Shown piece by piece: positions 2,468-48,355 of a stretch of DNA of 64,000 nucleotides; position 1 is the first letter of the stretch, and each line of letters starts with the position of its first letter. The DNA is from Candidatus Kerfeldbacteria bacterium RIFCSPLOWO2_02_FULL_42_19 (GTDB lineage: Bacteria > Patescibacteriota > Patescibacteriia > HO2-48-17). The notes beneath the pieces are model-generated. The model ran no database searches and was not told the DNA's origin. It saw only the letters and a program-made list of their open reading frames with translations. The position numbers and the translations under genes were made by a program. Location of the stretch: positions 64,325 through 128,324 of the forward strand of contig MHKF01000018.1 of the NCBI GenBank assembly GCA_001818315.1, read 5' to 3'.

Positions 2468-2640
2468 GTCGCCCCGAATACCATTTCTTGTTCAATACAT
2501 CATTCAATGCATAAGAAAAACAGGAGGAAGACTCTCCTTTCTCAGCACACTGTGCAGTGTTAGTGCTTCGAAAGCGAGAGTCTTCCTCCTGTTTTTCTAT
2601 GATCAAAATGTATTTTTCACAGACGAAAGTGCATTCGGCA
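2468..2640. repeat. Family-1 palindromic repeat element, copy 1 (central loop in inverted orientation)
   Basis: Outer stem cgccccgaata/gcattcggc; perfect 16-bp inner stem caggaggaagactctc/gagagtcttcctcctg followed by TTTTTCTAT. Shares the conserved 3' tail ttttctatgatcaaaatgtatttttcacagacgaaag with the copies at 29.6, 45.5 and 48.3 kb. Confidence 0.8.
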
Positions 2641-2679
2641 ATAATCCCTTTATCTTGGGCTTTATGATATGATAGGTGT

Positions 2680-3702
2680 ATGTCCTCATCCACTTTTATC
2701 TGGCCTATTATCGGTCATCAGTCAATTCAAATGTACTTGCAAAAGTGCATTAAATCTGGTAAAATTTTTCACGCTTACATCTTTGCGGGTTCTGAAGGTT
2801 TGGGAAAAACAACAGTTGCACGATTATTTTTTCAAACGCTTGCGTGCAAACTTTTTAATCCCACGATAGCGAGTTTTCCATGCAATACATGTAAAGTTTG
2901 CCAGCAAATGCAGAGCGGCAGCCATCCTGATTTATATTGGCTTGCACCGGTTCATTCCCCATTTTTGTTACTGGATGACATTCAATCTTTGCGTAGTCGT
3001 TTAAGTAAACGCGCTTTTTTTTCTGGTATCACTTTTGTGGGAATAGAGAAAGCTCATCTGCTGACTCCGGAGGCAAGTAGTGCTCTTTTGAAACTTATCG
3101 AAGAACCGGTAACGCGCTTGTGTTGTATTTTTTTAACGTCCGCTTATGCAGCACTTCCTGAAACTTTACGTTCTCGCACGCACGTTATTTTTTTTCATCC
3201 AGTATCTCAATCTTTGATATCTGATTCGTTACGAGATCGTTGTTCGCACAAACAAGCTTTGGAACTCGCTCAAGAGTCATTTGGAAGACCCGGTTTTGCT
3301 TTGCAAGCACTTGCTACTCCGGAGTTGCGCAAAAATCTTCATACCCTCGTTGCTCATTTTTTGAAAGTTTTACACACAAAAAAACTGGCTGCTCGTTTGA
3401 CTATGCTGGAAGCACTTTTTTTTCGGGGTATATCCACTCAACACACTCGTGCACGTTTTCAAGAAATATGCGAAGTATGGAGTTTCGTACTGCGCGATAT
3501 ATTTTTCGTGAAGTTAGACCAAAAAAAATATCTCCGTTTTCCTACATTTGTTGAGCAGTATAATAATTTTGCAGCGCAAATAACCTCGCGGCATTTACTT
3601 CAGATGATGCAGGATACGATACGTATAACACAAGCAATGAAAACAAATATTACCCCACAGCTTTTACTGGAGCAGTTTTTTCTTCAACATTCTTTTTCAT
3701 AA
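2680..3702 (+). CDS. holB: DNA polymerase III delta-prime subunit (AAA+ clamp-loader)
   Basis: N-terminal GHQSIQ..L......GKIFHAYIFAGSEGLGKTT Walker A-like box and overall delta-prime layout. Confidence 0.7.
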   Translation: MSSSTFIWPIIGHQSIQMYLQKCIKSGKIFHAYIFAGSEGLGKTTVARLFFQTLACKLFNPTIASFPCNTCKVCQQMQSGSHPDLYWLAPVHSPFLLLDDIQSLRSRLSKRAFFSGITFVGIEKAHLLTPEASSALLKLIEEPVTRLCCIFLTSAYAALPETLRSRTHVIFFHPVSQSLISDSLRDRCSHKQALELAQESFGRPGFALQALATPELRKNLHTLVAHFLKVLHTKKLAARLTMLEALFFRGISTQHTRARFQEICEVWSFVLRDIFFVKLDQKKYLRFPTFVEQYNNFAAQITSRHLLQMMQDTIRITQAMKTNITPQLLLEQFFLQHSFS

Positions 3703-3703
3703 T

Positions 3704-4792
3704 ATGTTCTATCCGAAAATCGCTGTTTTTTTTCTTCTTGCTTCGAGCCTTACTTTTGTTGGTTGCAATCTTCAACGTCAAGCTACTCAGCTTGATGGCG
3801 GAGTATTTTTGAGTCTGGACTACGGTGAGACTTGGAACACGCGAAGTTTTGTCCGTTTTGAAACAAAAACTCGGCGTCTGATTTCAATAAACGACGTCAC
3901 TATCCATCGTCTTATATTCGACCCAGTGAACCCCAGTATGGTATACGCGTTGACGAAAGAAGATGGATTGTATGTTACGGAAAATGATGGAAAGGAATGG
4001 CGTAAAACAGGGCTTTCAGCTGGCAACATTACAGCGTTGAGTGTTGATCCGCAAGATACACAACGGCTTTTTGCAGCACGAGGTAAAGAGATTTTGCGAT
4101 CCATTGATCAGGGTACAACTTGGGAAATCGTGTTTACCGATACTCATAATGCCTTACTCACGGATGTTGATATTGACTTTTATGATCTTCAAAACGTGTA
4201 TGCTACGACCGATTCCGGGACTGTACTGAAAAGTCTTGATGGCGGAGTAAATTGGGAAATACTTTATGTGCCTGGGAAAGAAATCCGTGAGCTGATCCTT
4301 GATTCGAATGATAGTCGTATTGTGTACTTAGTGATAAAAAGCCGTGGTTTTCAAAAAAGTATCGATTCTGGCGTAACGTGGCAGGATTTTCGAGAAAAAC
4401 TTGCAGAGTTTTCAGGTGCTACTACGATTCAGCGACTGATAGTTGATCCTCAAAATTCACAACATATTTTGATCGCCTCTACCTTTGGGTTGCTTGAGAG
4501 TTTTGATGCCGGAGCAAGCTGGAAGCCAATTCAAACATTACTTACCGCACCTCTTGCCTTTAGTGCATTTGCTTTAGATCCGCAAGACAGTCAGCGCATG
4601 TATTTTGCGATTAAAAATCTGATGCACAAAACCGAAGATGGAGGGTTGACATGGAAAACGATTGAAAATTTTCCTTCGAAACGTCCTGTTATTTTTCTGA
4701 TTGCGCATCCTATTGAAACGAACGCACTGTACGCCGGGACTCTGAAGGTAGAAAAGAAACGTCGTGGCATTTTCCCGCAGCCCGCCAAATAA
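3704..4792 (+). CDS. BNR/Asp-box repeat lipoprotein (Ycf48-like beta-propeller)
   Basis: Signal peptide with lipobox LTFVGC. Seven S/D-x-D/G-G-x-T/N-W Asp-box repeats (YGETWNT, DGKEWRK, QGTTWEI, GGVNWEI, SGVTWQD, AGASWKP, GGLTWKT). Confidence 0.6.
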   Translation: MFYPKIAVFFLLASSLTFVGCNLQRQATQLDGGVFLSLDYGETWNTRSFVRFETKTRRLISINDVTIHRLIFDPVNPSMVYALTKEDGLYVTENDGKEWRKTGLSAGNITALSVDPQDTQRLFAARGKEILRSIDQGTTWEIVFTDTHNALLTDVDIDFYDLQNVYATTDSGTVLKSLDGGVNWEILYVPGKEIRELILDSNDSRIVYLVIKSRGFQKSIDSGVTWQDFREKLAEFSGATTIQRLIVDPQNSQHILIASTFGLLESFDAGASWKPIQTLLTAPLAFSAFALDPQDSQRMYFAIKNLMHKTEDGGLTWKTIENFPSKRPVIFLIAHPIETNALYAGTLKVEKKRRGIFPQPAK

Positions 4793-4802
4793 TTTTATGC
4801 CT

Positions 4803-5354
4803 ATGATGACACACATGGAAGAACAAAAGTTTATTCAAGCGATTCAATTTTTCAAAAGTGAGTTGGAACACTTACGCACAGGTAGAGCGACTCCTGTATT
4901 GGTAGAAGAGATTCCAATCTCCGCTTATAATACTTCTTCTCCACTTCAGCAGCTTGCTCATATCAGCGCACAGGATGCTCGTACGTTGGTGATCCAGCCG
5001 TGGGATAAAAGCATCGTCAATGATATTGAAAAGTCTTTGCAAGCCTCATCCCTTGGCATACCGCCAGTAGTTTCGGGTACAGAAATTCGACTGAACTTTC
5101 CGCTCCTGACCGAAGAAAGACGGAAGGAAATCGTAAAAATAGTGCACGCCAAAGCTGAAGAGACTCGAGTACGCGTTCGCACGATTCGTGAGCAAATATT
5201 GAAAACATGGAAAGAGAAAGAACGGGAGGGTGAAATCTCGGAAGACGCATTCGCACGGTTGCAGAAAGTTTTACAGAAAAAGGTTGACGATACGAATCAA
5301 TTCATTAAAGATATTATGCTCAAGAAAGAGAAGGAGATTTTATCACTTTCATAA
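4803..5354 (+). CDS. frr: Ribosome recycling factor
   Basis: EEQKFIQAIQFFKSELEHLRTGRATPVLVEEI... matches the RRF family along its whole length. Track start 4764 overlaps the upstream gene; ATG at 4803-4815 is the more likely start. Confidence 0.9.
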   Translation: MMTHMEEQKFIQAIQFFKSELEHLRTGRATPVLVEEIPISAYNTSSPLQQLAHISAQDARTLVIQPWDKSIVNDIEKSLQASSLGIPPVVSGTEIRLNFPLLTEERRKEIVKIVHAKAEETRVRVRTIREQILKTWKEKEREGEISEDAFARLQKVLQKKVDDTNQFIKDIMLKKEKEILSLS

Positions 5355-5367
5355 TTTTTGTAAGACT

Positions 5368-6495
5368 ATGTTCATGACGCTTGTATGGTTCATCATTATT
5401 CTTGCCGTTTTAGTGCTCATTCACGAGTTTGGTCATTTTATTGCTGCAAAACGTTCCGGTGTTTTAGTTGAAGAATTTGGTTTTGGTTTTCCACCGAAAT
5501 TATTCGGTGTGCGATATAGAGGCACTTTATATTCATTCAATGCGATTCCTTTTGGAGGCTTTGTGAAACTCAAAGGCGTTCCCGGGGAAGATGCGCATCC
5601 AGAACATTTTGATGATCACAATAGTTTTGCGAAGAAAGCTTTTCTCCAGAAGTTTTTTATTTTGAGTGGCGGAGTTTTTATGAATATTCTCCTTGCCGTT
5701 ATGCTTTTTGCTGTGGGTTTCACGATTGGTATGCCACAAGTACTTGATAAGAGCAATCTTTTTTCTGCTGCTCGTATTCGCGATGAGTTCATTCAGATAG
5801 TCGAAACCGAACCAACACTTTCCGCTGCGCAGGCAGGAATTCAAGCGGGTGATACACTCCTTACTCTTGATGGACAAGTTGTTCGTAGTATTGAAGAGGT
5901 CCAGGAGTATAACGCTGAAAGGATCGGCCAGACAGTTGCTGTACAAGTGCGGCGAGGTGACGAAACACTGACTTTTCCAGTGAATGTGAGTGCACTGGAA
6001 AACGAGGAGAGAGGAGTGCTTGGAGTACAACTTGCTCGTGTTGGGACGGTTTCGTATCCGTGGTATCTTTCTTTTGGATTTGGCATTGTGTATGCGTTGC
6101 AGATTCTCTGGCTTATTCTTGGCGCTTTTGCGACTCTGCTGATTGATTTGATCACTTCAGGACAAGTTTCTGCCGATCTTTCTGGACCGGTAGGGATTGC
6201 TGCAATGACCGGACAAGTAGCCAAACTTGGTTTTGTATACGTACTCCAATTTGTCGCTTTATTATCTTTGAATTTAGCACTTTTCAATATCTTGCCTATT
6301 CCTGCACTGGATGGAGGAAGAATATTTTTTCTCATTATTGAAAAACTGCGACGCAAAAAAAACAGCGAACGTGTTGAAAATGTAGTGCATCGCATTGGCT
6401 TTGCGCTGCTTCTCGTTTTGATTGTGCTTGTAACCTTTCGTGATCTCCATCGATACAGCGATAGTATTAAGGCATTTTTTTCCGGTATTTTTTGA
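5368..6495 (+). CDS. rseP: RIP site-2 metalloprotease RseP (M50 family)
   Basis: HEFGHFIAAK HExxH in TM1, internal PDZ-like segment, C-terminal LDGG motif. Track start 5230 overlaps frr; ATG at 5368 (MFMTLVWFIIIL) follows the frr stop. Confidence 0.8.
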   Translation: MFMTLVWFIIILAVLVLIHEFGHFIAAKRSGVLVEEFGFGFPPKLFGVRYRGTLYSFNAIPFGGFVKLKGVPGEDAHPEHFDDHNSFAKKAFLQKFFILSGGVFMNILLAVMLFAVGFTIGMPQVLDKSNLFSAARIRDEFIQIVETEPTLSAAQAGIQAGDTLLTLDGQVVRSIEEVQEYNAERIGQTVAVQVRRGDETLTFPVNVSALENEERGVLGVQLARVGTVSYPWYLSFGFGIVYALQILWLILGAFATLLIDLITSGQVSADLSGPVGIAAMTGQVAKLGFVYVLQFVALLSLNLALFNILPIPALDGGRIFFLIIEKLRRKKNSERVENVVHRIGFALLLVLIVLVTFRDLHRYSDSIKAFFSGIF

Positions 6496-6501
6496 TGCGG
6501 T

Positions 6502-8172
6502 ATGAAACAGTCTCAACTTTTTGGTAAAACAACGAAAACGATTCCAAAAGACATCAAACTTGCAAGTCACAAATTTTTGTATCAGGGCGGTTTTATTCGG
6601 GAACTTACTGCTGGGCGGTATTCCTATTTGCCTCTTGGATTTCGTGTGTGGTCGCGCATCGTTTCGATTATTGATCAGGAGATGCAACGTATTGGTGCTC
6701 AGCGCGTCTTGACTCCTACACTGCATCCGGTGGAACTTTGGAAACAGGGACCGCGTTTTGCAGCGTGGGGACCGGAGTTGATGCAAGTGAAAGATCGACG
6801 CGATACTCTCTTTGCTTTAGGTGCGACTCACGAAGAAGTTTTTGGTGATCTTGTGAAAAAATTTTCTTTAAGCTATAAGGATCTCCCGTGTGTTGTGTAT
6901 CAATTTACTACAAAATTTCGCGATGAATTACGACCGCGAGGTGGCCTGTTGCGACTCCGTGAGTTTACTATGAAAGACGCCTATTCATTTCACGTTACTG
7001 CTGCTTCGTTGGATGCAACCTATAGAGCAATGTATGCGGCCTATGAAAAATGCATGCAGCGTTTCGGACTTGACTATATTGTGGTGGAAGCTGATAGCGG
7101 CGCTATTGGAGGCAAACATTCACATGAATTTATGGCGCTTTCTTCTGTCGGTGAAGATATTGTGTTACGTTGTCCGTCATGCGGATACGCTGCAAATCAG
7201 GAAAAAGCACAATTCTTTCGTGAGCCTTTGAATCTTTCTGAAAAATTAGGCAAGTTGCACAAGGTCCAAGCTCGCGGCCTTGTGACTATTGAAAAAATGT
7301 CTCAGCATTATAAAGCACCGAGAGCACAGATGTTGAAGAGCGTCGTATATGTTGCTGATGAAAAGTTTGTAGGAGCTGTACTGCGCGGTGATTTAGAAGT
7401 CAATGAGATAAAATTTAAAAATGTCTTGCAAGCGAGAACGCTTCGGCAAGCGACTGAAGTAGAGATTACATCACTTGGAACCGTTCGTGGCTTTATTGCT
7501 CCTATTGATCTCAAAAATGTTTTGTGGATTGGTGATCCTTCGGTTGAAACTGTTCGTAATTTTTACACCGGGGCGAATGTTGTGGATGTCGATTTTGCCA
7601 ATATAAATTTCCCGCGTGATTTTCAAGTATCTCGTCTTACTGATATTGCCCAAGCGCAAGCAGGGTATGCATGTCATGTATGTCATGCACAATTGCAAGC
7701 GTTGCGTGCCATTGAGTTTGGTCATATCTTTAAGCTCGATCATTATTATAGTGTCCCTCTCGACGTCAATTTTGTGGATGCGCAAGGTAACGTGAAGCCA
7801 TTATTCATGGGTTCCTACGGTATTGGCATTGATCGTGCTGTTGCAACGATCGTGGAACAACATCACGATGCTGCTGGTATTGTCTGGCCAGCTGCGGTAG
7901 CCCCTTACCAAGTACATCTTGTGAATCTCGTCACGGATCACACTGCAGCAGATGCTCTTTATGATGCTTTACAAGCTAAGGGTATTCAGGTACTGTATGA
8001 TGATCGTCAAATTTCTTCTGGTAGTAAATTAAAAGATACAGATCTTCTTGGAATGCCATGGCGTATTATCGTGAGTTCGCGACTCGCGTCGGGGCAATTT
8101 GAATTAAAAAATCGTTCAAGTAAGGCTGTAGTCAAAGGAAATCTCGCATTCATTCTCAAGCAGCTTTCGTGA
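6502..8172 (+). CDS. proS: Prolyl-tRNA synthetase (bacterial type with insertion/editing domain)
   Basis: Class II aaRS motifs, YQGGFIRELTAGRYSYLPLGFRV N-terminus characteristic of ProRS. Confidence 0.9.
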   Translation: MKQSQLFGKTTKTIPKDIKLASHKFLYQGGFIRELTAGRYSYLPLGFRVWSRIVSIIDQEMQRIGAQRVLTPTLHPVELWKQGPRFAAWGPELMQVKDRRDTLFALGATHEEVFGDLVKKFSLSYKDLPCVVYQFTTKFRDELRPRGGLLRLREFTMKDAYSFHVTAASLDATYRAMYAAYEKCMQRFGLDYIVVEADSGAIGGKHSHEFMALSSVGEDIVLRCPSCGYAANQEKAQFFREPLNLSEKLGKLHKVQARGLVTIEKMSQHYKAPRAQMLKSVVYVADEKFVGAVLRGDLEVNEIKFKNVLQARTLRQATEVEITSLGTVRGFIAPIDLKNVLWIGDPSVETVRNFYTGANVVDVDFANINFPRDFQVSRLTDIAQAQAGYACHVCHAQLQALRAIEFGHIFKLDHYYSVPLDVNFVDAQGNVKPLFMGSYGIGIDRAVATIVEQHHDAAGIVWPAAVAPYQVHLVNLVTDHTAADALYDALQAKGIQVLYDDRQISSGSKLKDTDLLGMPWRIIVSSRLASGQFELKNRSSKAVVKGNLAFILKQLS

Positions 8173-8196
8173 AAATTTTTTTACGCATTCTTTTTT

Positions 8197-9249: not shown

Positions 9250-9282
9250 CGTGCTGATGGGAGGAATGACGCATTTTAAGAT

Positions 9283-10083
9283 ATGAATGTTTTTTCGAGA
9301 CGTATTTCTCTCTTTATCATTGGAAGTTTTTTGCTTCTGATCTTTATTTTTTTCGGCGTTTTTCGTTTTGCAGAAAACGTGTTGACATTTATTGCCGCGC
9401 CAGTTCAGCAAGTGTTTTGGCAGATGAATGTGCGTTTGAAAAATATTGCCGCTGTGTTGCGCCAGGATTCAGTTTCTTTACAGCAAGAGAATATACGTCT
9501 GAAGAATCAATTGAACGCTTCGATTATGGAAAATGCAAAACTTCACCAGAAGATTGTGGAATTTGAGTCTCTTTCAGAACAATTGAAGTACATTGATGCT
9601 CAGGGTCTTCGTTCAATTCCCATGAACGTATTAGGTCCATCCTCAGACGGCATCGCTCAAGTCATCCATGTGAGTAAAGGGGCACAGGATGGAGTGCAAG
9701 TTGGACTTCCAGTCATTGTTGATAACGGTCTTTTCGTCGGTAAAATTATTGATGTAACTACAACTACCGCTCAAGTGCTTTTGATCACTGATAATAATAG
9801 TGCATTTTCTGCAGTAGTTCAAAATGATGCGCAGAGTCCTGGTATTGTATCTGGCCAGCACGGATTGTCATTGAAAATGGATTTTATTCCGCAACTTGAT
9901 CCTATTGCGATTGATATGATCGTTATCACCGCTGGTTCAGAGCCTTTGATCCCGAAGGGACTTGTTGTCGGTATCATAGAATCAGTTTCAAAACCGAGCG
10001 GTGCTTTGTTTCAACAAGCCGACGTACGTTCTTTAGTGAATTTACAAAAGCTTGAAGTCGTTTCGGCTGTACTTAGGCAATAA
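9283..10083 (+). CDS. mreC: Rod shape-determining protein MreC
   Basis: N-terminal TM helix, coiled-coil segment (LQQENIRLKNQL..), C-terminal beta domain GLPVIVDNGLFVGKIIDV; position after mreB. Confidence 0.8.
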   Translation: MNVFSRRISLFIIGSFLLLIFIFFGVFRFAENVLTFIAAPVQQVFWQMNVRLKNIAAVLRQDSVSLQQENIRLKNQLNASIMENAKLHQKIVEFESLSEQLKYIDAQGLRSIPMNVLGPSSDGIAQVIHVSKGAQDGVQVGLPVIVDNGLFVGKIIDVTTTTAQVLLITDNNSAFSAVVQNDAQSPGIVSGQHGLSLKMDFIPQLDPIAIDMIVITAGSEPLIPKGLVVGIIESVSKPSGALFQQADVRSLVNLQKLEVVSAVLRQ

Positions 10084-10092
10084 TTTTATTGT

Positions 10093-13222: not shown

Positions 13223-14710
13223 ATGAAACAGAAAAAAGCTATCACATCAAGTGAACGTCCAGAGCGAGAGATTCGTCTTGAAAAACTCCAAGCGTTACGT
13301 GCGCAACACCTTGAGCCCTATCCGGCTCGTGTACGTCGCGATCTCACCCTCGCGGCTGTCGAAAAGGATTTTTTGAATCTTGATGGAAAGAAATTTTTTG
13401 TTGTTGGACGCGTTCGTTCATTGCGGCGTCACGGAAAAATCATATTTCTTCACATTGAAGATGGTACCGGAAAAATGCAACTCGTACTTCAGTTCAATGT
13501 ACTTGGCCAGCACGTCTATCGCACACTGGAAAATTTTTTGGATATCGGCGACTTTCTCGAAGTTTACGGCAACCCTTATGTGACGAAAAAAAACGAACAT
13601 TCTCTGCTCGTGCATTCTTTGCGTATTATTGCAAAAGCACTCCGACCGATTCCTGATACGTGGTACGGCTTGAAAGATGATGAGGAACGTTATCGTAGGC
13701 GTTACTTGGATATACTTGTGAATCCGGATGTCGCTGAGATAATTGTGAAGCGCTCAAAGTTTTGGAAGAGTATCAGAGATTTTATGTTCGCAGAAGGTTT
13801 TATGGAAGTTGAAACTCCAGTTTTGGAAAATACTACCGGAGGTGCTGATGCAGTACCTTTTGCTACGCATCATAATAGTCTTAACATTGATGTTTATCTG
13901 CGTATTTCGGCGGGTGAACTTTGGCAAAAGCGTCTTATGGTTGCCGGCTTTGAAAAAACTTTCGAAATTGGACGAATTTTTCGTAACGAAGGTATGAGCG
14001 CCGAACACTTGCAGGATTATACTCAACTTGAATTCTATTGGGCGTACGCTGACTATGGAAAAGGCATGGAATTCGTCGAAAGGTTATACAAACATGTAGC
14101 ACGTGAAACATTTGGAACTTTGCAATTTCATATTCGTGATTTTGATGTTGATCTTGGAAAGGCGTGGCCCCGATACGATTTTCGTGAAACCCTGATCGAA
14201 CACACCGGTGTTGATGTTTTGAAAACTTCTTTGTCTGCTGTTTTACAAAAATTACAGGCTCGCAATATTCAATGTGAGGATTCGCTGACACTGCCCCGAG
14301 CACTTGACCAACTTTGGAAATCAGTTCGTAAGAGTATTGCCGGACCGGGGTTCGTTATTCATCATCCTGTTTTTTTATCTCCGCTCGCCAAACGCACGGA
14401 GCACAATCCAGAGCTTGTAGAACGTTTTCAGTCGATTATAGCAGGTACGGAAATAGGTAATGGGTATACGGAATTGAATAATCCGATAGATCAGGCTGAA
14501 CGTTTTCAAGAGCAGGCTGCTCTGCGAGCGCAAGGAGATCTCGAAGCTCAGATGCCCGACTATGATTTTGTTGAAGCACTTGAATACGGCATGCCGCCGA
14601 CGTGCGGCTTCGGTGTTTCTGAACGTTTATTTGCATTTCTGATGAATCGATCAGTTCGTGAATGTGTCTTATTTCCGCTCCTGCGTCCAAAGGTAAAAAA
14701 AGTTTTATAA
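13223..14710 (+). CDS. lysS: Lysyl-tRNA synthetase (class II)
   Basis: N-terminal OB anticodon-binding (VVGRVRSLRRHGKIIFLHIEDGTG), class II motifs incl. FRNEG. Confidence 0.9.
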   Translation: MKQKKAITSSERPEREIRLEKLQALRAQHLEPYPARVRRDLTLAAVEKDFLNLDGKKFFVVGRVRSLRRHGKIIFLHIEDGTGKMQLVLQFNVLGQHVYRTLENFLDIGDFLEVYGNPYVTKKNEHSLLVHSLRIIAKALRPIPDTWYGLKDDEERYRRRYLDILVNPDVAEIIVKRSKFWKSIRDFMFAEGFMEVETPVLENTTGGADAVPFATHHNSLNIDVYLRISAGELWQKRLMVAGFEKTFEIGRIFRNEGMSAEHLQDYTQLEFYWAYADYGKGMEFVERLYKHVARETFGTLQFHIRDFDVDLGKAWPRYDFRETLIEHTGVDVLKTSLSAVLQKLQARNIQCEDSLTLPRALDQLWKSVRKSIAGPGFVIHHPVFLSPLAKRTEHNPELVERFQSIIAGTEIGNGYTELNNPIDQAERFQEQAALRAQGDLEAQMPDYDFVEALEYGMPPTCGFGVSERLFAFLMNRSVRECVLFPLLRPKVKKVL

Positions 14711-14722: not shown

Positions 14723-16000
14723 ATGCTCGATATCGAATACATCCGTCAATATAGTGCGCTTGTCCGCGACGCTGTTCGAAAAAAGGGTTTTCAGGTTGAT
14801 ATCGATAGACTTCTCGCTCTCGATGCACAACGTCGTGAACTTTTGCAGAAAATTGAAAAATTGCGTCATGAACAAAAAGAGGGGAGTAAAGTTATTACAA
14901 GCGTACCATCTCAAGAGCGAGCCGAGACGATTCGTTTTATGAAAAAAATTGATGATCGTATTTCAACGTTTGCAACGAAATTAAAGCCACTACTTGCAGA
15001 ATACGACGCACTTCTTTTACAGGTTCCAAATATTCCGGCGAAGGAAGTGCCAGAGGGTCATTCCAGTGAGCAGAACGTCATGTTGCGAACTGTTGGTCAA
15101 CCGCCACGTTTTTCTTTTGAGTTTTTGGATCATGTGAAGCTTGGGGAGTATTTGGATATTATTGATGTGGAACGTGGAGTAAAACTCACCGGGAATAGGG
15201 GATACATTTTAAAAAATGACGCTGTTCGATTGGAGCAGGCGCTGCTTGTGTATGCATTGGATTTTATTGCACAGCGCGGCTTTACGATTTTTACGCCGCC
15301 GTATATGGCACAGGAGCGTTTTTTCTTTGGCACAGGCTATTTTCCTTGGGCCAAGACAGAGACCTTTCAAGTATCTGATGGAAAAAAATTTCAGCACCTG
15401 ATAGGTTCGGCTGAAGTGCCGCTCACAGCGTATCATGCGGGTGAAGTGCTTGCAATAAAAGAATTGCCGAAATATTATGCTGCTTCAACTCCGTGTTTTC
15501 GTACAGAAGTTGGAAGTTATGGAAAAGATACAAAGGGTTTATTTCGACTCCGACAGTTTCATAAAGTTGAACAGGTGATTCTATGTGAAAATAGTGAAGA
15601 AGTTTCAGTTCATATGTTTCATTTCTTACTTAAAAACGCCGAAGAATTTTTGCAATCACTCGAATTACCTTATCGAGTTATGCGATTGTGTGCCGGTGAA
15701 ATCGGTGCTGGTCAGATCGAAAAATATGACATTGAGACATGGATGCCATCGCGTAATGCGTACGGTGAGACGCACTCATGTTCCCGTTTTCATGATTTTC
15801 AAACGCGACGATTACATATTCGATACAAAGATTCTGACGGTAAACTTCGTTTCGCGCACTCACTCAATAATACTTTAATCGCAAGTCCTCGCATTCTTAT
15901 TGCTTTTTTAGAAGTTCATCAGCAGGAAGATCGTACCGTCCGTATTCCGAAGGCACTTCAGCCGTATATGCACGGAAAAGAATATATCGGTAAGTTATAG
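14723..16000 (+). CDS. serS: Seryl-tRNA synthetase
   Basis: N-terminal coiled-coil arm (LDAQRRELLQKIEKLRHEQKE), class II catalytic core. Confidence 0.9.
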   Translation: MLDIEYIRQYSALVRDAVRKKGFQVDIDRLLALDAQRRELLQKIEKLRHEQKEGSKVITSVPSQERAETIRFMKKIDDRISTFATKLKPLLAEYDALLLQVPNIPAKEVPEGHSSEQNVMLRTVGQPPRFSFEFLDHVKLGEYLDIIDVERGVKLTGNRGYILKNDAVRLEQALLVYALDFIAQRGFTIFTPPYMAQERFFFGTGYFPWAKTETFQVSDGKKFQHLIGSAEVPLTAYHAGEVLAIKELPKYYAASTPCFRTEVGSYGKDTKGLFRLRQFHKVEQVILCENSEEVSVHMFHFLLKNAEEFLQSLELPYRVMRLCAGEIGAGQIEKYDIETWMPSRNAYGETHSCSRFHDFQTRRLHIRYKDSDGKLRFAHSLNNTLIASPRILIAFLEVHQQEDRTVRIPKALQPYMHGKEYIGKL

Positions 16001-28609: not shown

Positions 28610-29529
28610 ATGTAAGTCCTATGTTTTCTGTCCTGTTTTTTGGAACTTCTGAATTCGCGGTGCCTGTACTTGATGCTTTGAAATTTTTCGGTTTTCAGAT
28701 CGCTCTCGTTATTACTCCGCCGGATAAAGCGAAAGGACGTGGTCGTCACATTGTTTTTTCGCCTGTGAAGAGTTATGCAGTCCAGCACAGCCTCAATAGT
28801 TTCCAGCCGAGAAAACTTTCTGCTCCGGATTGTGTTCGGTATCTTACTCAATATCATTTTGATATCGGTATTGTTGCATCGTATGGGAAAATTATTCCAG
28901 CTTCAATCCTTCATGTGCCGACTCATGGTATGATCAATATTCATCCCTCATTGTTGCCAGCGCTTCGTGGGCCTGCTCCTATACAATATGCGTTGCTTTT
29001 TGGACTCACAGTAACCGGTGTGACATTTATGCTTATGGATGAGGGTATGGATACTGGGCCTGTGCTTTTTCAGCGCACGATGAGGATTCCTGCGCGTGCT
29101 ACTTTTTTTATGCTCTCTGAGCTTCTCTCTCGTGTAGCTGCACGCGATGTTCCATCGGTTGTTACGCGTTACCTTACAGGCGAACTTGTGTCACATGCTC
29201 AAGGACAGAACGGTGTGAGTTATTCAAAAATGCTCAATAAGGAAGCTGGACAGATTCGCTGGGAAAATTCTGCCGAAAAGATTGATTGCATGATTCGCGC
29301 ATTTTTTCCATGGCCCGGTGCTTTTACTTCCTGGAACGGTTTGCATGTAAAGATTATCGCCGCGCATCCTGGTTCCCACGGCAATCTTGTAATACCTTGT
29401 GGTGATCGTACTTCATTAGCGATTGATACTTTACAACCTGCTGGAAAAAAGAGTATGAGTTCTTCGGATTTCGTGCGTGGATATCGTCGTTTTTTGCCGT
29501 CTCATGCAGTTCTTGATCGGCAGAGATAG
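28603..29529 (+). CDS. fmt: Methionyl-tRNA formyltransferase
   Basis: FFGTSEFAVPVL N-terminus, IHPSLLPALRGPAPIQYAL formyltransferase core; def-fmt synteny. Confidence 0.9.
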   Translation: MVNVSPMFSVLFFGTSEFAVPVLDALKFFGFQIALVITPPDKAKGRGRHIVFSPVKSYAVQHSLNSFQPRKLSAPDCVRYLTQYHFDIGIVASYGKIIPASILHVPTHGMINIHPSLLPALRGPAPIQYALLFGLTVTGVTFMLMDEGMDTGPVLFQRTMRIPARATFFMLSELLSRVAARDVPSVVTRYLTGELVSHAQGQNGVSYSKMLNKEAGQIRWENSAEKIDCMIRAFFPWPGAFTSWNGLHVKIIAAHPGSHGNLVIPCGDRTSLAIDTLQPAGKKSMSSSDFVRGYRRFLPSHAVLDRQR

Positions 29530-29555
29530 GAGGCGTGCATTTTGTGTATGGGACT

Positions 29556-29717
29556 GTCACCAAATACTGTTTTTGTCTCATGCACAAAGCAAAAGAGGAG
29601 GAAAACTCTCGCTTTCGGAGCACTAACACTGCACCGTGTGCTGAGAAAGGAGAGTTTTCCTCCTCTTTTGCTATGATCAAAATGTATTTTTCACAGACGA
29701 AAGCGCATTCGGCGACA
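29556..29717. repeat. Family-1 palindromic repeat element, copy 2
   Basis: Inner stem gaggaggaaaactctc/gagagttttcctcctc (G-C to A-T covariation relative to copy 3), loop gctttcggagcactaacactgcaccgtgtgctgagaaag, conserved 3' tail; between convergent fmt and GT2 genes. Confidence 0.8.
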
Positions 29718-29723
29718 AACCCT

Positions 29724-30476
29724 TTATGTTTTTTTGTTTGTTGCGCGCGGCAATTCATTTCGAAATGGTTTTCCGGTACGCGCGGTTTTGACGAAATTGA
29801 GGAGATATTTTACAAAATCAAATGTTGGTTTGTAGCGCCTCGAATGTGTTGCGATCATGAGTTTTGGGTCGAAAAAAATCTTTCCAATTTTTTTTACTCG
29901 TTGTGAAAGTTCAATATCCTCACCAAATTTGAAATTGACATTAAATCCGCCAGCTTGCAAAAAAATGTCTCTGCGGATAGCAAAATTCGTTCCGGGGAGA
30001 TGATTCGTGCCTTTCCCAAGTTTTTTATCCGCCCACATCATCTTTGGGAATATTTTTGCTGCAAGCCAGTTCCATAATTTTCCTCTATCCGAGAAAGTAT
30101 AAGGCCCCCACACAGCTCCGTACTTTTTGTTTGTTTTCATGATGTTATGGATCGTTTGTAACCAATGTTTTGGGACGATACTATCTGCATCTGTACTTGC
30201 AATAATACTCCCTCGTGTGTGCATAAAACCTGTTTGCCTTGCATAACCTACTCCCCTGTGTTGTTCTTTGAGAATGGTCACATTAAATTTTTTTGCCAAA
30301 GCAATGGTTGCATCTTGACTTCCGTTGTCGACCACAATAATTTCGTAAGGTGCGCCTATATTTTGTTCACTCAGTGCCTTGAGACATGCGGTGATGAGTC
30401 TTGCTTCATTGTACGCTGGAACTACGACGGAGATTATCGGTTGCTTTTGTAATTTTTGTTCTTGTATGCAGTACAT
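29724..30476 (-). CDS. Glycosyltransferase family 2
   Basis: ISVVVPAYNEARLI...YEIIVVDNGSQDAT (GT-A DxD region). Track start 30722 overlaps the upstream gene; ATG at 30476 (MYCIQEQ) gives a 251-aa protein. Confidence 0.75.
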   Translation of the reverse strand: MYCIQEQKLQKQPIISVVVPAYNEARLITACLKALSEQNIGAPYEIIVVDNGSQDATIALAKKFNVTILKEQHRGVGYARQTGFMHTRGSIIASTDADSIVPKHWLQTIHNIMKTNKKYGAVWGPYTFSDRGKLWNWLAAKIFPKMMWADKKLGKGTNHLPGTNFAIRRDIFLQAGGFNVNFKFGEDIELSQRVKKIGKIFFDPKLMIATHSRRYKPTFDFVKYLLNFVKTARTGKPFRNELPRATNKKT

Positions 30477-40372: not shown

Positions 40373-40375
40373 ATT

Positions 40376-40711: not shown

Positions 40712-40860
40712 TACGTACATACGCTTCGTGCTACGACTCGTTTTTCGCTTAGAAACCTACATTTTCGTGGCGGGTACCACAAGATTCTTAACAGACTCTT
40801 AGGAATTACAACGTTTGATACTGTCTGAAACAGAGGTCACAAACATGTATTCCTTATTTT

Positions 40861-43800: not shown

Positions 43801-44295
43801 TATGTCACAAAGACAAAGCGTTTGATTACTAAAAATCGTGAAGGTATGCTTTTTGCTCAGTTTGAGGATTTTTCTGGGGAAATTGAAGCGATAGTTTTTC
43901 CGAGAATTTTTCGTGAAACGCACTTTCTTTGGTCGCAAGGCGCATTGCTTCTTGTGGATGGCCATATGTCGCATAAAGATCATCTTGTGAAAATCATTGC
44001 GGATACGGTTCGAGAAATCAGTCTCAATGATATCGCCACGCTTCCTGTATGGAATCCATCGAGTGTTTTGATTACCCTCCCTTATCGTGTGCATCAATCA
44101 GTTGTCACACAATTGCAAAAAATTTTTTCCGAACATCCTGGGCAGTGTTCGGTACGACTTTGCGTTGAAGGTGGACAACTCGACAAAGAAATTCTTACGA
44201 AAACACGTATTCATTGCGATGCAGCAACGCTTACGGCAATTGAGCATATTGTAGGTTCTGGTAAAGTGCGCATGAATATGTCAGTGCGTGCCTAA
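40861..44295 (+). CDS. dnaE: DNA polymerase III alpha subunit
   Basis: N-terminal PHP domain (HLHAHSFYSIL), polymerase core GxGRGSAAGSLVAY and PDIDTDF catalytic aspartates, 1144 aa. Confidence 0.95.
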   Translation: MQSEHAFVHLHAHSFYSILTALPSPEALVSYAHKLGFPALALTDTSVMYGAIEFYQKAHAVGIKPILGMELFVVDSTQDTHARKPFPLVLLAKDYVGYKYLLYLSSHAHLEGVRDGVPCIDKKILHRQHNQLIALTGGVQGEIASALARHNETQAKQLLHEYQNIFGKENVYIELQSRLEVPEANALFQQLYAFSRTMSVPLVATNDVHYLKPEDAHAQDILQCIKAKKLYRDESRTSLQQSNYALLSAHEMAERFSELPEALKNTLKITEQCNVQLPLGSIQLPSFPLPDRMTPEERLVQLCDDGILRRYRQKSPAIEQRLAYELSIIRKTGFASYFLIVQDFINWAKQNNIVVGPGRGSAAGSLVAYLTNITNIDPLQYDLLFERFLNPERVSMPDIDTDFDDERRDDVIAYVEEKYGKDRVAQIITFGTMAARAAVRDVGRVLGFAYNFCDRIAKLIPTFRTIDEAFTEVPELKNLYETDPDCERLIKTARKLEGVVRHTSIHACGVVITKDPLVEHTALQHAENGSVISQYALHSVEDLGLLKMDFLGLKNLTIIRNTLDIVQKTVGEQIDIDVIPLDDSRTYRLLQQGQTIGVFQLESSGMRRYLRELEPTEFEDIIAMVALYRPGPMEFIPDYIAGKHGRKAIEYLHNELKPLLQKTYGIAVYQEQIMEIARQLAGFTYGEADVLRKAVGKKIKELLATQETKMIQGMIHHGIAPQTAKKIWEFILPFARYGFNRSHAACYALISYQTAYLKANYPAQFMAALMTADAGDSDRIAIEVQECRQLGIEVLPPDINESFSTFTVVRKSLNADKPRIRFGLAAIKNVGSTIVHAIIRERKSGGAFTDIAQFLSRVHHKDLNKKALESFIKSGALERFDGRAVFLHNLPQLLQYARNVALARTNRQGNLFGDFQLPLLPLDQGPTISRAQQLQWEKDLLGLYISAHPLSLYKDEIIHRAVLIESAKHFPDDTPVRLIGYVTKTKRLITKNREGMLFAQFEDFSGEIEAIVFPRIFRETHFLWSQGALLLVDGHMSHKDHLVKIIADTVREISLNDIATLPVWNPSSVLITLPYRVHQSVVTQLQKIFSEHPGQCSVRLCVEGGQLDKEILTKTRIHCDAATLTAIEHIVGSGKVRMNMSVRA

Positions 44296-44310
44296 GTATA
44301 TTTCCTGCTT

Positions 44311-45471
44311 ATGTCTACGGGGCCTTTTAAGAATATGAAAATTACAAAAGTTTACGCGAAATTTGTTTTTTTGTTTGTGTTGATGAGTGCGCTTCTCCTT
44401 CTTTTTATCGTGTATCTTTCTTTTGCAAAAACAACTGTGATTGTGCATCCACGTCTTGAGTCTTTTACACAGGAATTTACTTTGCAGGTTTCCAGTCCAA
44501 AAGAAACAGACGATATTTCTTCATTGTCGGCACAATTTCTACAGTATACGGTTCGCGGCAGTAAGCGTGTTGTGGATCTTACGCAAACATCTGAAATCTC
44601 TGAAAAAGCGACTGGAGAGGTTACTATTTTCAATAAGTATCGTCAAAGTCAACCTCTTGTTGCTACAACACGATTTCTTTCCAATGAAGGAATACTTTTT
44701 CGTACGCTCGAAACCGTCACTGTTCCTGCTGGAGGGCAGGTTAAGGTTAATGTTATTGCTGATCAACCCGGCGCAAGTGGAGAAATTCCTCCGACTCACT
44801 TTACGATTGTTGCTCTCTGGAAGGGATTGCAGGATCTTATTTATGCTGAAAGCAATCAACCTATGAAACGTTCTAGTCGCTCGATTACTGTTGTGACGCA
44901 AGAAGATATCCGTAATGCTTTGGAAGAGCTTTCGGCGTCGCTTATTCAGGAGGCTCTCACAGCACTTGCACTGCAGGCACGCAACGATTTTCCGCACTTG
45001 GATTTTCTTCCTGACGCTTTTGAAGAGCGTATGCTTTTCGAGTCCTCAAGTGTTCCTGCTGGTATCGAAGCTTCTGAATTTACTGTTGAACGCGAACTCC
45101 AAATCATTGCAATCGTCACTTCGAAAAAACTCCTCGAAACAAAAATACAGGAAATTTTACAATCGGCGCTCCCAGAAAATAAAAAGTTTGCTCCTTCAGG
45201 GAAGCAAGTATCGACGTATTCTTTGATTGAGGTCGAGCTCGAAAAACACACTGGAAAACTTGTTGGCCGTGCTGAATATCCGATAGTGCTTTCACTTTCA
45301 CATCCAGTACTGGATCGGAGTAAACTTACCAATAAAGACGCTCAGGAGATTCGAGCTTTTTTAACAAGTTTTCCTGAGATTAGTGATGTGCAAGTGAAAT
45401 TTTCACCTTTTTGGTCGAAACGTTCGTTGCCGCTCGAAGATCATATTGAAATTTTTCTTTCGGCGCTTTGA
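44311..45471 (+). CDS. Hypothetical membrane-anchored protein
   Basis: N-terminal TM (FVFLFVLMSALLLLFIVYLSF); no recognizable motif; 16 nt after dnaE. Confidence 0.4.
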   Translation: MSTGPFKNMKITKVYAKFVFLFVLMSALLLLFIVYLSFAKTTVIVHPRLESFTQEFTLQVSSPKETDDISSLSAQFLQYTVRGSKRVVDLTQTSEISEKATGEVTIFNKYRQSQPLVATTRFLSNEGILFRTLETVTVPAGGQVKVNVIADQPGASGEIPPTHFTIVALWKGLQDLIYAESNQPMKRSSRSITVVTQEDIRNALEELSASLIQEALTALALQARNDFPHLDFLPDAFEERMLFESSSVPAGIEASEFTVERELQIIAIVTSKKLLETKIQEILQSALPENKKFAPSGKQVSTYSLIEVELEKHTGKLVGRAEYPIVLSLSHPVLDRSKLTNKDAQEIRAFLTSFPEISDVQVKFSPFWSKRSLPLEDHIEIFLSAL

Positions 45472-45505
45472 ATTTTGGGCGCACTTAACAGTGTTTTTTG
45501 GGATT

Positions 45506-45666
45506 GTCGCCGAATAGCATTTCTTGTTCAATGCATTAGAAAAAGAGGAGGAAGACTCTCGCTTTCGAAGCACTAACACTGCACAGTGTGCTGAGAAAGG
45601 AGAGTCTTCCTCCTCTTTTTCTATGATCCAAATGTATTTTTCACAGAGGGAAGCGTATTCGGCGAC
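45506..45666. repeat. Family-1 palindromic repeat element, copy 3 (best-preserved copy)
   Basis: Outer stem tgtcgccgaata/tattcggcgaca; inner 16-bp stem gaggaggaagactctc/gagagtcttcctcctc flanked by AGAAAAAG and TCTTTTTCT. Confidence 0.85.
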
Positions 45667-45675
45667 AGCCCTTTT

Positions 45676-46314
45676 TTACTTTGCTTTTATTTTCCGCTTA
45701 AGGAATGATTCTACAGTGTGTACGATGGCTTGTGTTTGTCGATCAATTTCGACGTTTACCATGTGACCTTCGCGTTTCCAACCAAAAGTAGTTCGCTTGA
45801 GTGTTTCAGGGATAAAGGCGACTGAAAAATATCCTTGCGAATTCCATGTGTCTACAATAGTCAGGCTCACTCCATCGAGTGCAATGAATCCTTTTGGAAA
45901 AATATATTTCATCCAGGATTTTTTTATCTTGAATTGTATGCGATAGTTGTTGTAGGAAGTTGTGATGGAATCAATACTTGCTTGCGTATCAACGTGTCCA
46001 GAAAGTAAATGCCCTCCAATTTCGTCTTTGAGTGTCATGGAGCGCTCGATGTTCACGCGTTGATGTATTTTTATATGACCAAGGGTTGTCTTTTTTTCTG
46101 TTTCGGCCATGAAATCAAACGTTACTTTCTTTTTTTTACATGTGACAATTGTGAGACAAACGCCGTCAATAGCAATACTCGCGCCTTTTTTTACAGCCGA
46201 AAATGCCTGCGGCATCTGCACGGTAAAATTTTTATGATCCGAAAATTTTTTGATACTTACTATTGTACCTGTACCTTGAATAATGCCGGTGAACATATAA
46301 TGATACACTATCAA
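45676..46314 (-). CDS. ribE: Riboflavin synthase alpha chain
   Basis: MFTGIIQGTGTI...two lumazine-binding repeats (..GASIAIDGVCLTIV.. and ..GFIALDGVSLTIV..); likely ATG start at 46296. Confidence 0.85.
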   Translation of the reverse strand: MIVYHYMFTGIIQGTGTIVSIKKFSDHKNFTVQMPQAFSAVKKGASIAIDGVCLTIVTCKKKKVTFDFMAETEKKTTLGHIKIHQRVNIERSMTLKDEIGGHLLSGHVDTQASIDSITTSYNNYRIQFKIKKSWMKYIFPKGFIALDGVSLTIVDTWNSQGYFSVAFIPETLKRTTFGWKREGHMVNVEIDRQTQAIVHTVESFLKRKIKAK

Positions 46315-46427
46315 AAGTTTCTTTTCTTGACAAAGATGCTGCGAACTTTTATGCTTTTTTTGTGAAGCTACAACATTTTCGTGCTACTTTTAGATCAAAA
46401 CTCAATCGAGTATTTTTATTTTGATGT

Positions 46428-48203
46428 ATGACGGTGCGCAATTTGCATGATCCTTTGGAAGTAAAACGACACTCTTTCGCGCATTTGGTTGCTGCCGCTG
46501 TGACGCGTCTTTTTCCTGGCACTCATCTTGGTGTCGGCCCTGTGATCGATAATGGATTTTATCATGATTTTGAATTACCTGAAGGCAAAAAACTCTCTGA
46601 AGCAGATCTTCCGCGTATTGAAGCTATGGTGCGTCGATTGATTACCGAAGCGCAGGAATTTGCAAAAAAAATCGTCCCTATTCAGGAAGCGATACAACTT
46701 CTCCAGCAGCGTGGGCAAGTGTATACACAAGAACTTGCTGAAGATTTGGAAAAGGAGGGCATTCACGAAGTCAGTTTTTATAGCAACGGCGAATTTAGTA
46801 ATATGTGTACGGGTCCGCATATTCAAAACACTCGCTTGTTAGATTCACACGCTTTTAAACTCATGAATGTCGCTGGAGTATATTGGAAAGGTGATGAACA
46901 ACGTCCTCAAATTCAGCGTATCTATGGAGCAGCTTTTCATACCTCTCAAGCGCTTGAAGACTATCTGAAACTTCACGAGGAAGCAAAAAGACGAGATCAT
47001 CGAAAACTTGGTAAAGAGCTTGACCTTTTTGTTTTTTCCCCCTTGGTTGGCGCTGGACTCCCCTTGTTTACTTCGAAAGGCGCTCTCATCCGTAAACTCA
47101 TAAGTGATTTCATTCTCGAACTTCAAAAACCTTTTGGTTATCAACAAGTTTGGATTCCGCACCTTACAAAAACGGCGCTGTATAAAACTTCTGGGCATTG
47201 GGATAAATATAAAAACGATTTGTTTTATGTGCGTGGGAAACATGATAATGAATACGTTCTTAAGCCCATGAACTGCCCTCATCATACTCAAATTTATGCT
47301 TCGCGACTTCGGAGTTTCCGTGAACTTCCTTTGCGATTTGCTGAAGTTTCGACTACCTATCGTGATGAACAGCCTGGGGAACTTCAAGGTCTTTCGCGTG
47401 TGCTCGCTATTACTGTCGATGATGCACATTTATTTTGTACTCCCGAACAAGTTCTTTCGGAGGTCTTGAATATTTTTAAAATTATCGAGCCTTTTTATGC
47501 TGCGTTTCATTTACCTTTAACGATTCGTTTGTCGCTTCGCGATCCAGAACATCCCGAAAATTATCTTGGTTCCGAACACGTATGGGAACAATCCGAATCC
47601 CTCCTTGCGCAGGCAATTGAATCTTTCGGAAAAACGTATCTGAAGGTTCCGGGTGAAGCTGCGTTTTATGGACCAAAGATTGATTTTTTAGCGAAAGATT
47701 CGTTGGGTCGCAGTTGGCAGGTTGCGACAATACAAATTGATTTTAATCAGCCGGAGCGTTTTCAACTTGTCTATCAGGATCACGACGGCAAACCAAAAGC
47801 TCCGGTGATGATTCATCGCGCGATTGCCGGTTCTCTGGAACGTTTTATGGCTATTCTTATTGAGCATTTTGCTGGTGCGTTTCCGTTATGGCTTGCCCCT
47901 CTTCAGCTTGCGCTGCTTCCGGTTGCCGAACGGCATGTTGCGTTTGCACAAAAACTTGCCGCGGATTTTCGTGAGTATGATTTTCGTGTAGAAGTTTTTG
48001 ATACTTCAACAACGGTCAGCAAGAAAATTGTGGAAGCTGCAAAACTTCACATCCCTTATGTTTTGGTGCTCGGCGATAAAGAAATTGAGGAAAGAATGTT
48101 GTCGATTCGCAAACGAGGAAATAAAAAAGTTACTTCGACTTCAAAAGACGAATTTATTGCTTTGGTTCAGTCGGCTCTCAAGAGTCGCACTCTGGAATTA
48201 TAA
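46428..48203 (+). CDS. thrS: Threonyl-tRNA synthetase lacking the N-terminal TGS domain
   Basis: Begins in the editing domain (RHSFAHLVAAAV HxxxH), class II core, C-terminal anticodon-binding domain. Confidence 0.9.
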   Translation: MTVRNLHDPLEVKRHSFAHLVAAAVTRLFPGTHLGVGPVIDNGFYHDFELPEGKKLSEADLPRIEAMVRRLITEAQEFAKKIVPIQEAIQLLQQRGQVYTQELAEDLEKEGIHEVSFYSNGEFSNMCTGPHIQNTRLLDSHAFKLMNVAGVYWKGDEQRPQIQRIYGAAFHTSQALEDYLKLHEEAKRRDHRKLGKELDLFVFSPLVGAGLPLFTSKGALIRKLISDFILELQKPFGYQQVWIPHLTKTALYKTSGHWDKYKNDLFYVRGKHDNEYVLKPMNCPHHTQIYASRLRSFRELPLRFAEVSTTYRDEQPGELQGLSRVLAITVDDAHLFCTPEQVLSEVLNIFKIIEPFYAAFHLPLTIRLSLRDPEHPENYLGSEHVWEQSESLLAQAIESFGKTYLKVPGEAAFYGPKIDFLAKDSLGRSWQVATIQIDFNQPERFQLVYQDHDGKPKAPVMIHRAIAGSLERFMAILIEHFAGAFPLWLAPLQLALLPVAERHVAFAQKLAADFREYDFRVEVFDTSTTVSKKIVEAAKLHIPYVLVLGDKEIEERMLSIRKRGNKKVTSTSKDEFIALVQSALKSRTLEL

Positions 48204-48209
48204 CGGATC

Positions 48210-48355
48210 CTTCTTGCGTTTTGATAAACACACAGAGAAGGAAGTCTTTGTTTTCTCAGCGCATTGTGCACTGTCAGTGCTTTGAAAGTGAGAGTCTTTC
48301 TCCTCTTTTTCTATGATGAAAATTCATTTTGTAACAGAAAGGGTATTCGGCGCCA
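48210..48355. repeat. Family-1 palindromic repeat element, copy 4 (degenerate, inverted loop)
   Basis: gagagtctttctcct right stem, loop ttttctcagcgcattgtgcactgtcagtgctttgaaagt in copy-1 orientation, tail tttttctatgatgaaaattcattttgtaacagaaagggtattcggcg. Confidence 0.65.

Follow-up and report, generated by a model that had tools for sequence, protein, structure and literature searches.

What are the repeated, strongly palindromic elements at gene 3′ ends in the genome of Candidatus Kerfeldbacteria bacterium RIFCSPLOWO2_02_FULL_42_19, and how did they come to be there? This uncultivated member of the candidate phyla radiation (CPR), from groundwater of the Rifle aquifer, is represented by four near-identical metagenome-assembled genomes (MAGs), RIFCSPHIGHO2_02_FULL_42_14 among them; the window analyzed here is a 64,000-nt stretch of contig MHKF01000018.1. 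A sequence-only reading of the window had described a four-copy family of ~160-bp structured palindromes and proposed that they might be a miniature inverted-repeat transposable element (MITE), a family resembling repetitive extragenic palindromes (REPs), or a structured small RNA. We consider the first of these the probable answer: the elements are best explained as a foldback-type MITE, that is, a non-autonomous DNA transposon, whose copies have proliferated in the genome of a single CPR organism. The family adds a further case to a well-known class of elements rather than a novel type of RNA.

Copy number and anatomy of the hairpin family

The four-copy family proved real, with each copy lying where it had been reported (Table 1). 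The 16-mer of the inner stem occurs seven times in the window with up to two mismatches, against 0.03 occurrences expected by chance, and the longest three local inverted repeats of the entire window are copies 2, 3, and 1. Using nhmmer with a profile built from five copies, we located in the window the four copies (c1–c4) and an arm-only remnant overlooked by the sequence-only reading, and a further 11 full copies outside it: one each on contigs L009 and L014, four on L016 (which additionally holds one truncated copy), three on L020, and two on L031. These contigs came to light when peptides derived from the elements, joined into one chimeric query, were run with HMMER against a set of 1.84 billion representative proteins; the search returned 14 matching “protein” clusters, and exact look-ups of neighboring proteins (A3B74_* locus tags) assign all five to the same organism as the window. 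For L009, L014, L016, and L020, the DNA-level match to the window is confined to the element. In all, the family comprises at least 15 full copies on six contigs of one organism, so that the further copies whose absence the sequence-only reading had named as a refuting outcome do exist, and in number. The ~145 kb of this genome that were sampled are biased towards element-bearing contigs; in the window, which is the unbiased part, density is four copies per 64 kb, or approximately one per 16 kb.

The elements are gene-less and 160–186 bp long (171–186 bp for the intact copies 1–3). They are bounded by terminal inverted arms of 40–50 nt, beginning GGGNYTGTCGCCGAAT, and both ends of all intact copies carry inverted GGGNYTGTCGCCGAATRC termini. 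The arms exist in two lengths, short (L, ~41 nt) and longer (R, ~52 nt). Among the first twelve copies, which were scored numerically, seven are L-core-R, one is L-core-L′, and three are R′-core-R, the left arm of copy 4 being too decayed to assign; by eye, copy L31a is L-core-R and copy L31b is L-core-L′. Between the arms lies a core consisting of a GC-rich stem of 23–31 bp, bordered by A5 and T5 runs, and a conserved 39-nt center, in which two 5-bp stems, with a GA/GA internal loop between them, are capped by a 14-nt apical loop. The GA/GA tandem mismatch is retained in 10 of 11 copies, and beside the stem the copies share a conserved TATGAT motif that looks like a −10 box. The center also keeps an off-centre ACACTG..CAGTGT palindrome and may be a protein-binding site.

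These details refine the anatomy described from sequence alone. The 39-nt “loop” reported there exists as a unit, but it folds further, making the whole element one long hairpin. The inner stem is longer than the 16 bp first given, reaching 23–26 bp with the A and T runs included. Its exact outer and 16-bp inner stems hold for copy 3, whereas copies 1 and 2 each carry one compensated inner-stem substitution and have imperfect outer stems, and in copy 4, where a perfect inner stem had also been assumed, only ~11 of the 16 pairs are left. Copy 3 is predicted to form one continuous hairpin at −93.6 kcal/mol (z = −12.5) on the plus strand, with −86.3 kcal/mol (z = −11.3) on the minus strand and −51.3 kcal/mol (z = −11.7) when folded as DNA; copy 1 folds at −72.5 kcal/mol (z = −9.3); and the decayed copy 4, at −35.7 kcal/mol (z = −0.17), is no more stable than shuffled sequence. 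Copy 1 contains, in its left arm, a 12-nt tandem-like internal duplication (2492–2515, TTCAATACATCATTCAATGCAT) not found in the other copies.

The palindrome has been maintained while its sequence changed. With all centers turned to the same orientation, 93.9% of the stem cells of the core hairpin are paired and both partners have changed in 14 of 33 pairs, a level reached by none of 500 shuffles. The loop, moreover, occurs in two orientations, that of copies 1 and 4 (A) being inverted relative to that of copies 2 and 3 (B); as the sequence-only reading had overlooked, the central 86 nt of copy 1 are 98% reverse-complementary to copy 3, with the flanking arms direct. Both orientations occur within the right-arm subtype “CAAAATGTA” (c1 in A; c2 and c3 in B) and within the subtype “GAAAATTC” (c4 and L9 in A; L14 in B), and loop flips or exchanges between copies must therefore have occurred more than once. 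Loop flips, arm conversions (L-R, L-L′, and R′-R), and compensatory stem changes would all fit palindrome-templated repair.

Evidence for transposition

Four lines of observation bear on mobility: flanking repeats, orientation, orthologous sites that lack the element, and a second subfamily with the same termini. The 5-nt flanks of the copies agree at 50 of 75 positions, compared with 39.9 ± 2.9 in mismatched pairings (permutation P = 0.0002). Perfect flanking 5-mers occur in four copies, where 0.07 would be expected: TTTTT in c3 (where the repeat can be read as TTTTT(T)), ATTAT in L9, TTATA in L16a, and TTGAT in L31b. A further three copies (c2, with TGTAT/TTTAT, L20b, and L31a) match at four of five positions. 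The duplications are 4–5 bp long and AT-rich, in flanks that are 84% A+T. With respect to genes the copies are found facing both ways, and they fold on both strands.

Related genomes reveal sites at which the element is absent. At the copy 3 site, the closest relative (L021; threonyl-tRNA synthetase, ThrRS, 80% identical) has a 69-nt spacer between the homologue of the 386-aa gene and ribE, where the window has 204 nt; the short spacer contains a small hairpin and a T-run of its own. The copy 4 site is likewise empty: L021 has no element after thrS, and in the more distant relatives L023 and L024 (ThrRS 61% identical) thrS and the DUF7897 gene overlap by 4 nt.

The reverse case is provided by a type-2 subfamily, which has the same termini as the elements described so far (type 1) and a different, AT-richer, fully palindromic interior (−87.2 kcal/mol, z = −14.6). 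Its copy in L023, from a sister Kerfeldbacteria species, lies upstream of the dnaE region between TTTA(G) repeats, at a site where the window has a ~40-nt spacer and no element. The type-2 sequences of L020 and of this sister species (ThrRS 61% identical) agree at most aligned columns. That the subfamilies share termini and have exchangeable interiors points to the termini as the part that a transposase would recognize.

MITEs are elements of ~30–300 bp without a transposase gene, and the family has the features by which they are known: small size and no open reading frame (ORF) of its own, terminal inverted repeats (TIRs), target duplications of 4–5 bp, many dispersed copies, and presence or absence that differs between species, with a second subfamily behind the same termini. 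In this respect the MITE proposal of the sequence-only reading finds good support. A transposase acting in trans would bind the terminal arms and, through a staggered cut of 4–5 bp, insert the element at A+T-rich sites; the target duplication leads us to presume an enzyme of the DDE type. In this compact genome, such sites would mostly fall in short spacers directly behind TAA stop codons and the T-tracts of terminators. Once inserted, the palindrome would be kept up by intra-element templated repair or strand switching, which could account for the paired changes in the stem, for the inverted central loops, and for arms of one type turned into the other, as in the L-L′ and R′-R copies.

Several observations weigh against this explanation. 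A clear duplication is present in only about half of the copies, and the relatives with empty sites are too diverged for base-level alignment of the spacers, so that the insertion boundaries rest on the termini and the duplications. Among the near-identical strains sampled (99.99% identical), the same insertions are found in all, presence and absence differing between species only. No autonomous partner with matching termini was found in the ~145 kb of this genome, where the only transposase seen belongs to an insertion sequence (IS) of the IS5 family; we rejected this IS, which lies in the window, as the mobilizing partner, as it makes a 3-bp ATT duplication and its ends are only loosely similar by eye. 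Full type-1 copies are also known from one species only: a scan of GTDB representative genomes with the pattern CTCCTNTTTTNCTATGATNNAAAT gave five matches, each a chance fit to the pattern only, a scan of JGI metagenomes matched just two contigs, both from this organism, and scans of IMG/VR, plasmids, and phages gave no match. Finally, nucleotide diversity (π) is 0.08–0.13 in the center vs 0.22–0.24 in the stem, and this two- to threefold greater conservation of the center hints at a sequence-specific function outside the transposon model; it is a hint only because a gap of about twofold is expected if stem mutations are copied to the opposite arm.

The closest anatomical match among described elements is to TIMEs, miniature elements derived from the Tn3 family, which have 38–40 bp inverted repeats (IRs), 5–6 bp duplications in A+T-rich targets, and composite forms (PMC4133298). 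Like TIMEs, the elements studied here are small, ORF-less, and multicopy, with long terminal IRs (arms of 40–50 nt that start with a G-run) and short direct repeats (4–5 bp) in A+T-rich targets. They differ in that neither a Tn3-family transposase nor a resolvase was found in the sampled DNA of this genome, and in that their interior is wholly palindromic, whereas the TIME core is non-palindromic. Similarity to the Tn3 IR covers about 10 of the first 12 bases (GGGTCTGTCGCC here vs GGGGTCTGACGC in Tn3) and is non-significant when the choice of family is allowed for. The 38-bp IR of the Tn3 family runs GGGG...TAAG; the termini here usually have GGG rather than GGGG, and the arms end in CATAG, ATAAG, or ATTAG at about position 40. 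Two copies on L016 (c and d, at 13848–14027 and 14827–15007) are 96% identical, lie in the same orientation, and flank a single GDSL-lipase gene in a composite-transposon-like arrangement, which recalls the element pairs that bracket a gene in TIME-COMP.

Other MITE and palindrome families offer looser parallels. The Correia/NEMIS elements of Neisseria are MITEs of ~100–155 bp with TIRs and many copies per genome, often near genes; they become hairpin RNA through co-transcription, and reports describe them as terminators or promoters and as substrates for RNase III processing. The present elements share with them small size, TIRs, high copy number, and a position near genes, but the TIRs of the Neisseria elements are 26 bp long, their duplication is TA, they contain an IHF site, and they differ in host phylum and show no sequence similarity. 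ERIC/IRU, RUP, BOX, bcr1, and RPE are intergenic elements of ~100–180 bp whose full length forms an imperfect palindrome; they can point either way and often lie in 3′ regions that are transcribed. Whole-length imperfect palindromy, intergenic position, and free orientation recur here, but without any sequence relationship, and clear target duplications or long conserved termini are missing from most of those families. In the literature searched, no MITEs or integrons have been described from Kerfeldbacteria or the CPR, and ERIC-like palindromes have likewise not been described from the CPR.

Table 1. Positions of the hairpin elements, their parts, and neighboring features (window coordinates unless a contig is named)
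Feature	Position	Strand	Description	Flanking genes
Copy 1	2463–2648	+	Intact foldback: L-type left arm, core hairpin, loop orientation A, R-type right arm	Tandem: GT4 glycosyltransferase (stop at 2442) and holB (start at 2680)
Copy 2	29551–29722	+	Intact L-core-R, loop orientation B	Convergent: fmt (stop 29529) and GT2 glycosyltransferase (stop codon 29724–29726, 1 nt past right terminus)
Copy 3	45499–45671 (profile match 45501–45671)	+	Best-preserved L-core-R, loop orientation B	Convergent: 386-aa gene (stop 45471) and ribE (stop codon 45676–45678)
Copy 3 core stem, left half TAGAAAAAGAGGAGGAAGACTCTC	45537–45560	+	24 nt, 100% complementary to right half; A-run is the would-be U-tract template for minus-strand transcripts	
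Copy 3 39-nt “loop”	45561–45599	+	Most conserved segment of the family, present in both orientations	
Copy 3 core stem, right half, then T-run	45600–45623	+	From inverted-repeat search and fold	
Copy 4	48208–48360	+	Decayed: left terminus gone, left stem half mutated; loop orientation A; R-type right arm, “GAAAATTC” subtype	Convergent: thrS (stop 48203) and DUF7897/CiaB-like gene (stop codon 48384–48386)
Solo R-type arm GGGACTGTTGCCGAATACACTTTTGCCTGCAAAAATTACA (plus-strand letters)	57741–57785	−	Terminal 40–45 nt of right arm; nhmmer E = 1.7e-4	Inner end overlaps stop codon (57776–57778) of integron integrase-like gene
Type-2 elements	L020 1631–1795 and 4253–4363; L023 4443–4608		Termini plus palindromic interior	
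Recombinase gene	57779–58059 and 59081–59642	−	Tyrosine recombinase, 273 aa once repaired; split by IS	
IS5-family IS	58060–59080		299-aa DDE_Tnp_4 transposase; 18–19 bp perfect TIRs AGACCTGTTGCGTATTAA; 3-bp ATT duplication	

Gene context, terminator role, and rival readings

Gene context was scored by hand from gene tables for 14 copies. With every called gene counted, six lie between convergent genes, seven between tandem genes, and one between divergent genes; the split becomes six, six, and two if the 52-aa and 73-aa calls beside copy L16b are artefacts. Thirteen of the 14 border a gene 3′ end, and in several (c2, c3, and L9) the right-arm terminus lies 1–4 nt from a TAA stop codon. For the window, the statement of the sequence-only reading that three of four copies sit between convergent genes stands, copy 1 being the tandem case.

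That reading had further assigned the inner stem, flanked by an A-run on one side and a T-run on the other, the role of a bidirectional intrinsic terminator. The flanks are as described: the GC-rich stem lies between the two runs, with TTTTT on the plus strand and its complement on the minus strand. Because A/T tracts flank the stem, because 13 of 14 copies border a gene 3′ end, and because the empty site in L021 carries an ordinary small terminator-like hairpin in the same position, bidirectional termination is a plausible and, on sequence grounds, likely secondary role of the MITE. The inserted hairpin with its A and T runs could halt transcription arriving from both sides, and insertions at gene 3′ ends, between convergent pairs especially, would then be tolerated or even useful. 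A simple terminator scan flags only the inner piece, since the stem and loop exceed the limits of the scan. The elements resemble known bidirectional intrinsic terminators in having an A-run, a GC-rich stem, and a T-run between convergent genes, but they are far larger, with a 23–31 bp stem plus inner stems in a hairpin of ~85 nt, and are repeated and bounded by transposon-like ends. Typical intrinsic terminator stems are much shorter than 23–31 bp, which counts against the terminator part of the explanation. Loop orientation relative to the direction of the upstream gene was uninformative (one way in three of four tandem contexts).

The same position at gene 3′ ends is what a host-domesticated extragenic palindrome would show, either a REP or the mosaic assemblies of REPs known as BIMEs (bacterial interspersed mosaic elements), spread or kept by a transposase of the RAYT (REP-associated tyrosine transposase) type (HUH, Y1) or by recombination, and acting on mRNA stability, termination, or nucleoid structure. 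Such an origin would accommodate the extragenic location, the strong palindromy with compensatory changes, the greater conservation of the center than of the stem, and the failure to find a DDE partner in the ~145 kb sampled. We nevertheless think it improbable: REP/RAYT and IS200/IS605-type movement is not known to yield terminal inverted arms of 40–50 nt or target duplications of 4–5 bp, and both are present here, the latter with statistical support. The elements are, moreover, single units of 160–186 bp, far longer than REP units, rather than arrays of 20–40 nt units, and the gene tables of the sampled loci contain no RAYT/HUH-like gene. The REP-like, RAYT-mobilized variant suggested from sequence alone is therefore unsupported.

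A second alternative takes the conserved center as a functional RNA and the repeats as gene copies, the elements being structured RNA genes or cis-regulatory RNAs of 3′ untranslated regions (UTRs). It draws on the very stable, covarying fold (z = −12.5 in copy 3), on the central 39 nt as the most conserved segment with its GA/GA mismatch kept in nearly all copies, and on the −10-like TATGAT beside the stem. However, folding is nearly as good on one strand as on the other, the copies face either way with respect to the flanking genes, and the loop is found in each orientation and with each arm subtype; terminal arms and target duplications are features of DNA, and arm-to-arm repair in a DNA palindrome also generates covariation. 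The Rfam scan proposed as a check returned no match in the window at the gathering threshold (Rfam 15); under relaxed settings, the best match scored 37.9 bits against 55.8 required, and only generic hairpins appeared (plastid 3′UTR, miRNA precursors). An RNA identity is accordingly unlikely, and the structured small RNA was the weakest of the readings proposed from sequence alone.

Returning to the MITE explanation, the family has consequences for annotation. The ORFs that run through the copies were correctly recognized as artefacts by the sequence-only reading: they are accidents of frame and differ between copies. Element-derived ORFs have nonetheless been deposited as hypothetical proteins, corresponding in the window to 2451–2693 (−), 29354–29758 (−), and 29535–29906 (+), and at least five GenBank “hypothetical proteins” of this MAG are element-derived (A3B74_01405, _04300, _01110, _05230, and _02725). 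The genomes of CPR/Patescibacteria are small and usually described as repeat-poor, and approximately one MITE copy per 16 kb in the unbiased window would be a notable load for such a genome, one that would mark operon boundaries, break assemblies, and create false “hypothetical proteins”. If the elements do act as bidirectional terminators, a mobile element would be supplying regulatory punctuation in a minimal genome. MITEs with such properties are well known in other phyla, and general understanding is unchanged; the interest lies in the CPR host, in the annotation artefacts, and in the loop flips and arm conversions, which would be a natural example of palindrome-templated sequence change.

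The neighboring integron

From 57.7 kb to its end, the window is occupied by a chromosomal integron that continues past the window and has at least nine small, promoterless cassettes on the plus strand. Its recombinase gene is interrupted by the IS5-family IS, and excising the IS together with one ATT copy restores the reading frame. An attI-like site (GTTAGGCG) lies at ~59730, followed by the six cassettes within the window, encoding a GNAT protein, a RidA/L-PSP protein, an ACT protein, a UDG-like protein, a membrane protein, and a DUF4870-like protein. An attC-like imperfect palindrome comes after every cassette (six sites at 60.2–63.9 kb), and its R′ (e.g. GTTATACGC) is complementary to the R″ (GCGTATAAC) of the next site. 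Extension contigs (L025, to approximately +3 kb) add at least three more cassettes, encoding a 157-aa protein, a methyltransferase, and a 138-aa protein, and all assemblies break inside the cassette array ~3 kb past the window.

The recombinase aligns to residues 10–196 and 240–317 of VchIntIA and lacks the insertion specific to integron integrases (VchIntIA residues 197–239); it is best scored as XerA-like (NF040815, 211 bits, slightly below the cut-off). Homologues of 270 aa number in the thousands in Patescibacteria, many on very short contigs, and carry the PGAP label “site-specific tyrosine recombinase/integron integrase”. An integron run by an integrase without the extra domain would be unusual.

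The solo arm, the fifth trace of the family in the window, agrees with the other copies at 19 of 21 terminal bases by manual alignment, and its position at the stop of the integrase gene may be a coincidence or may mark the end of a larger, integron-carrying transposon. This raises the question of whether the hairpin elements and the integron form one system. The arm could be the IRi-like end of a transposon carrying the integron, by analogy with Tn402 and class 1 integrons, in which case the 160-bp elements may be its miniature derivatives; alternatively, the folded elements could be substrates of the integrase. We see only a slim chance of such a link, which, if true, would connect a recombinase family found across the CPR with both a family of mobile hairpins and the capture of cassettes in reduced genomes. 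Slimmer still is the chance that the XerA-like/integron integrase at 57.8–59.6 kb uses the elements themselves as folded-DNA recombination sites resembling attC or dif: the solo arm overlapping its stop codon would be one such site, and integron attC sites, with a real array of them next door, are likewise imperfect palindromes at gene 3′ ends, but the R″/R′ cores (RYYYAAC/GTTRRRY) present in every attC of that array are missing from the elements, for which reason attC identity was rejected, and the elements flank housekeeping genes (fmt, ribE, thrS, and holB) rather than cassettes and have target duplications; the other arm-only matches proved to be either truncated copies of type 1 or complete ones of type 2, with no relation to an integrase.

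Base composition also changes at this end of the window (58000–64000). AT skew, negative over most of the window, turns positive from 58 kb, and GC content falls to 35% at 62–64 kb, which fits the cassette array being foreign DNA.

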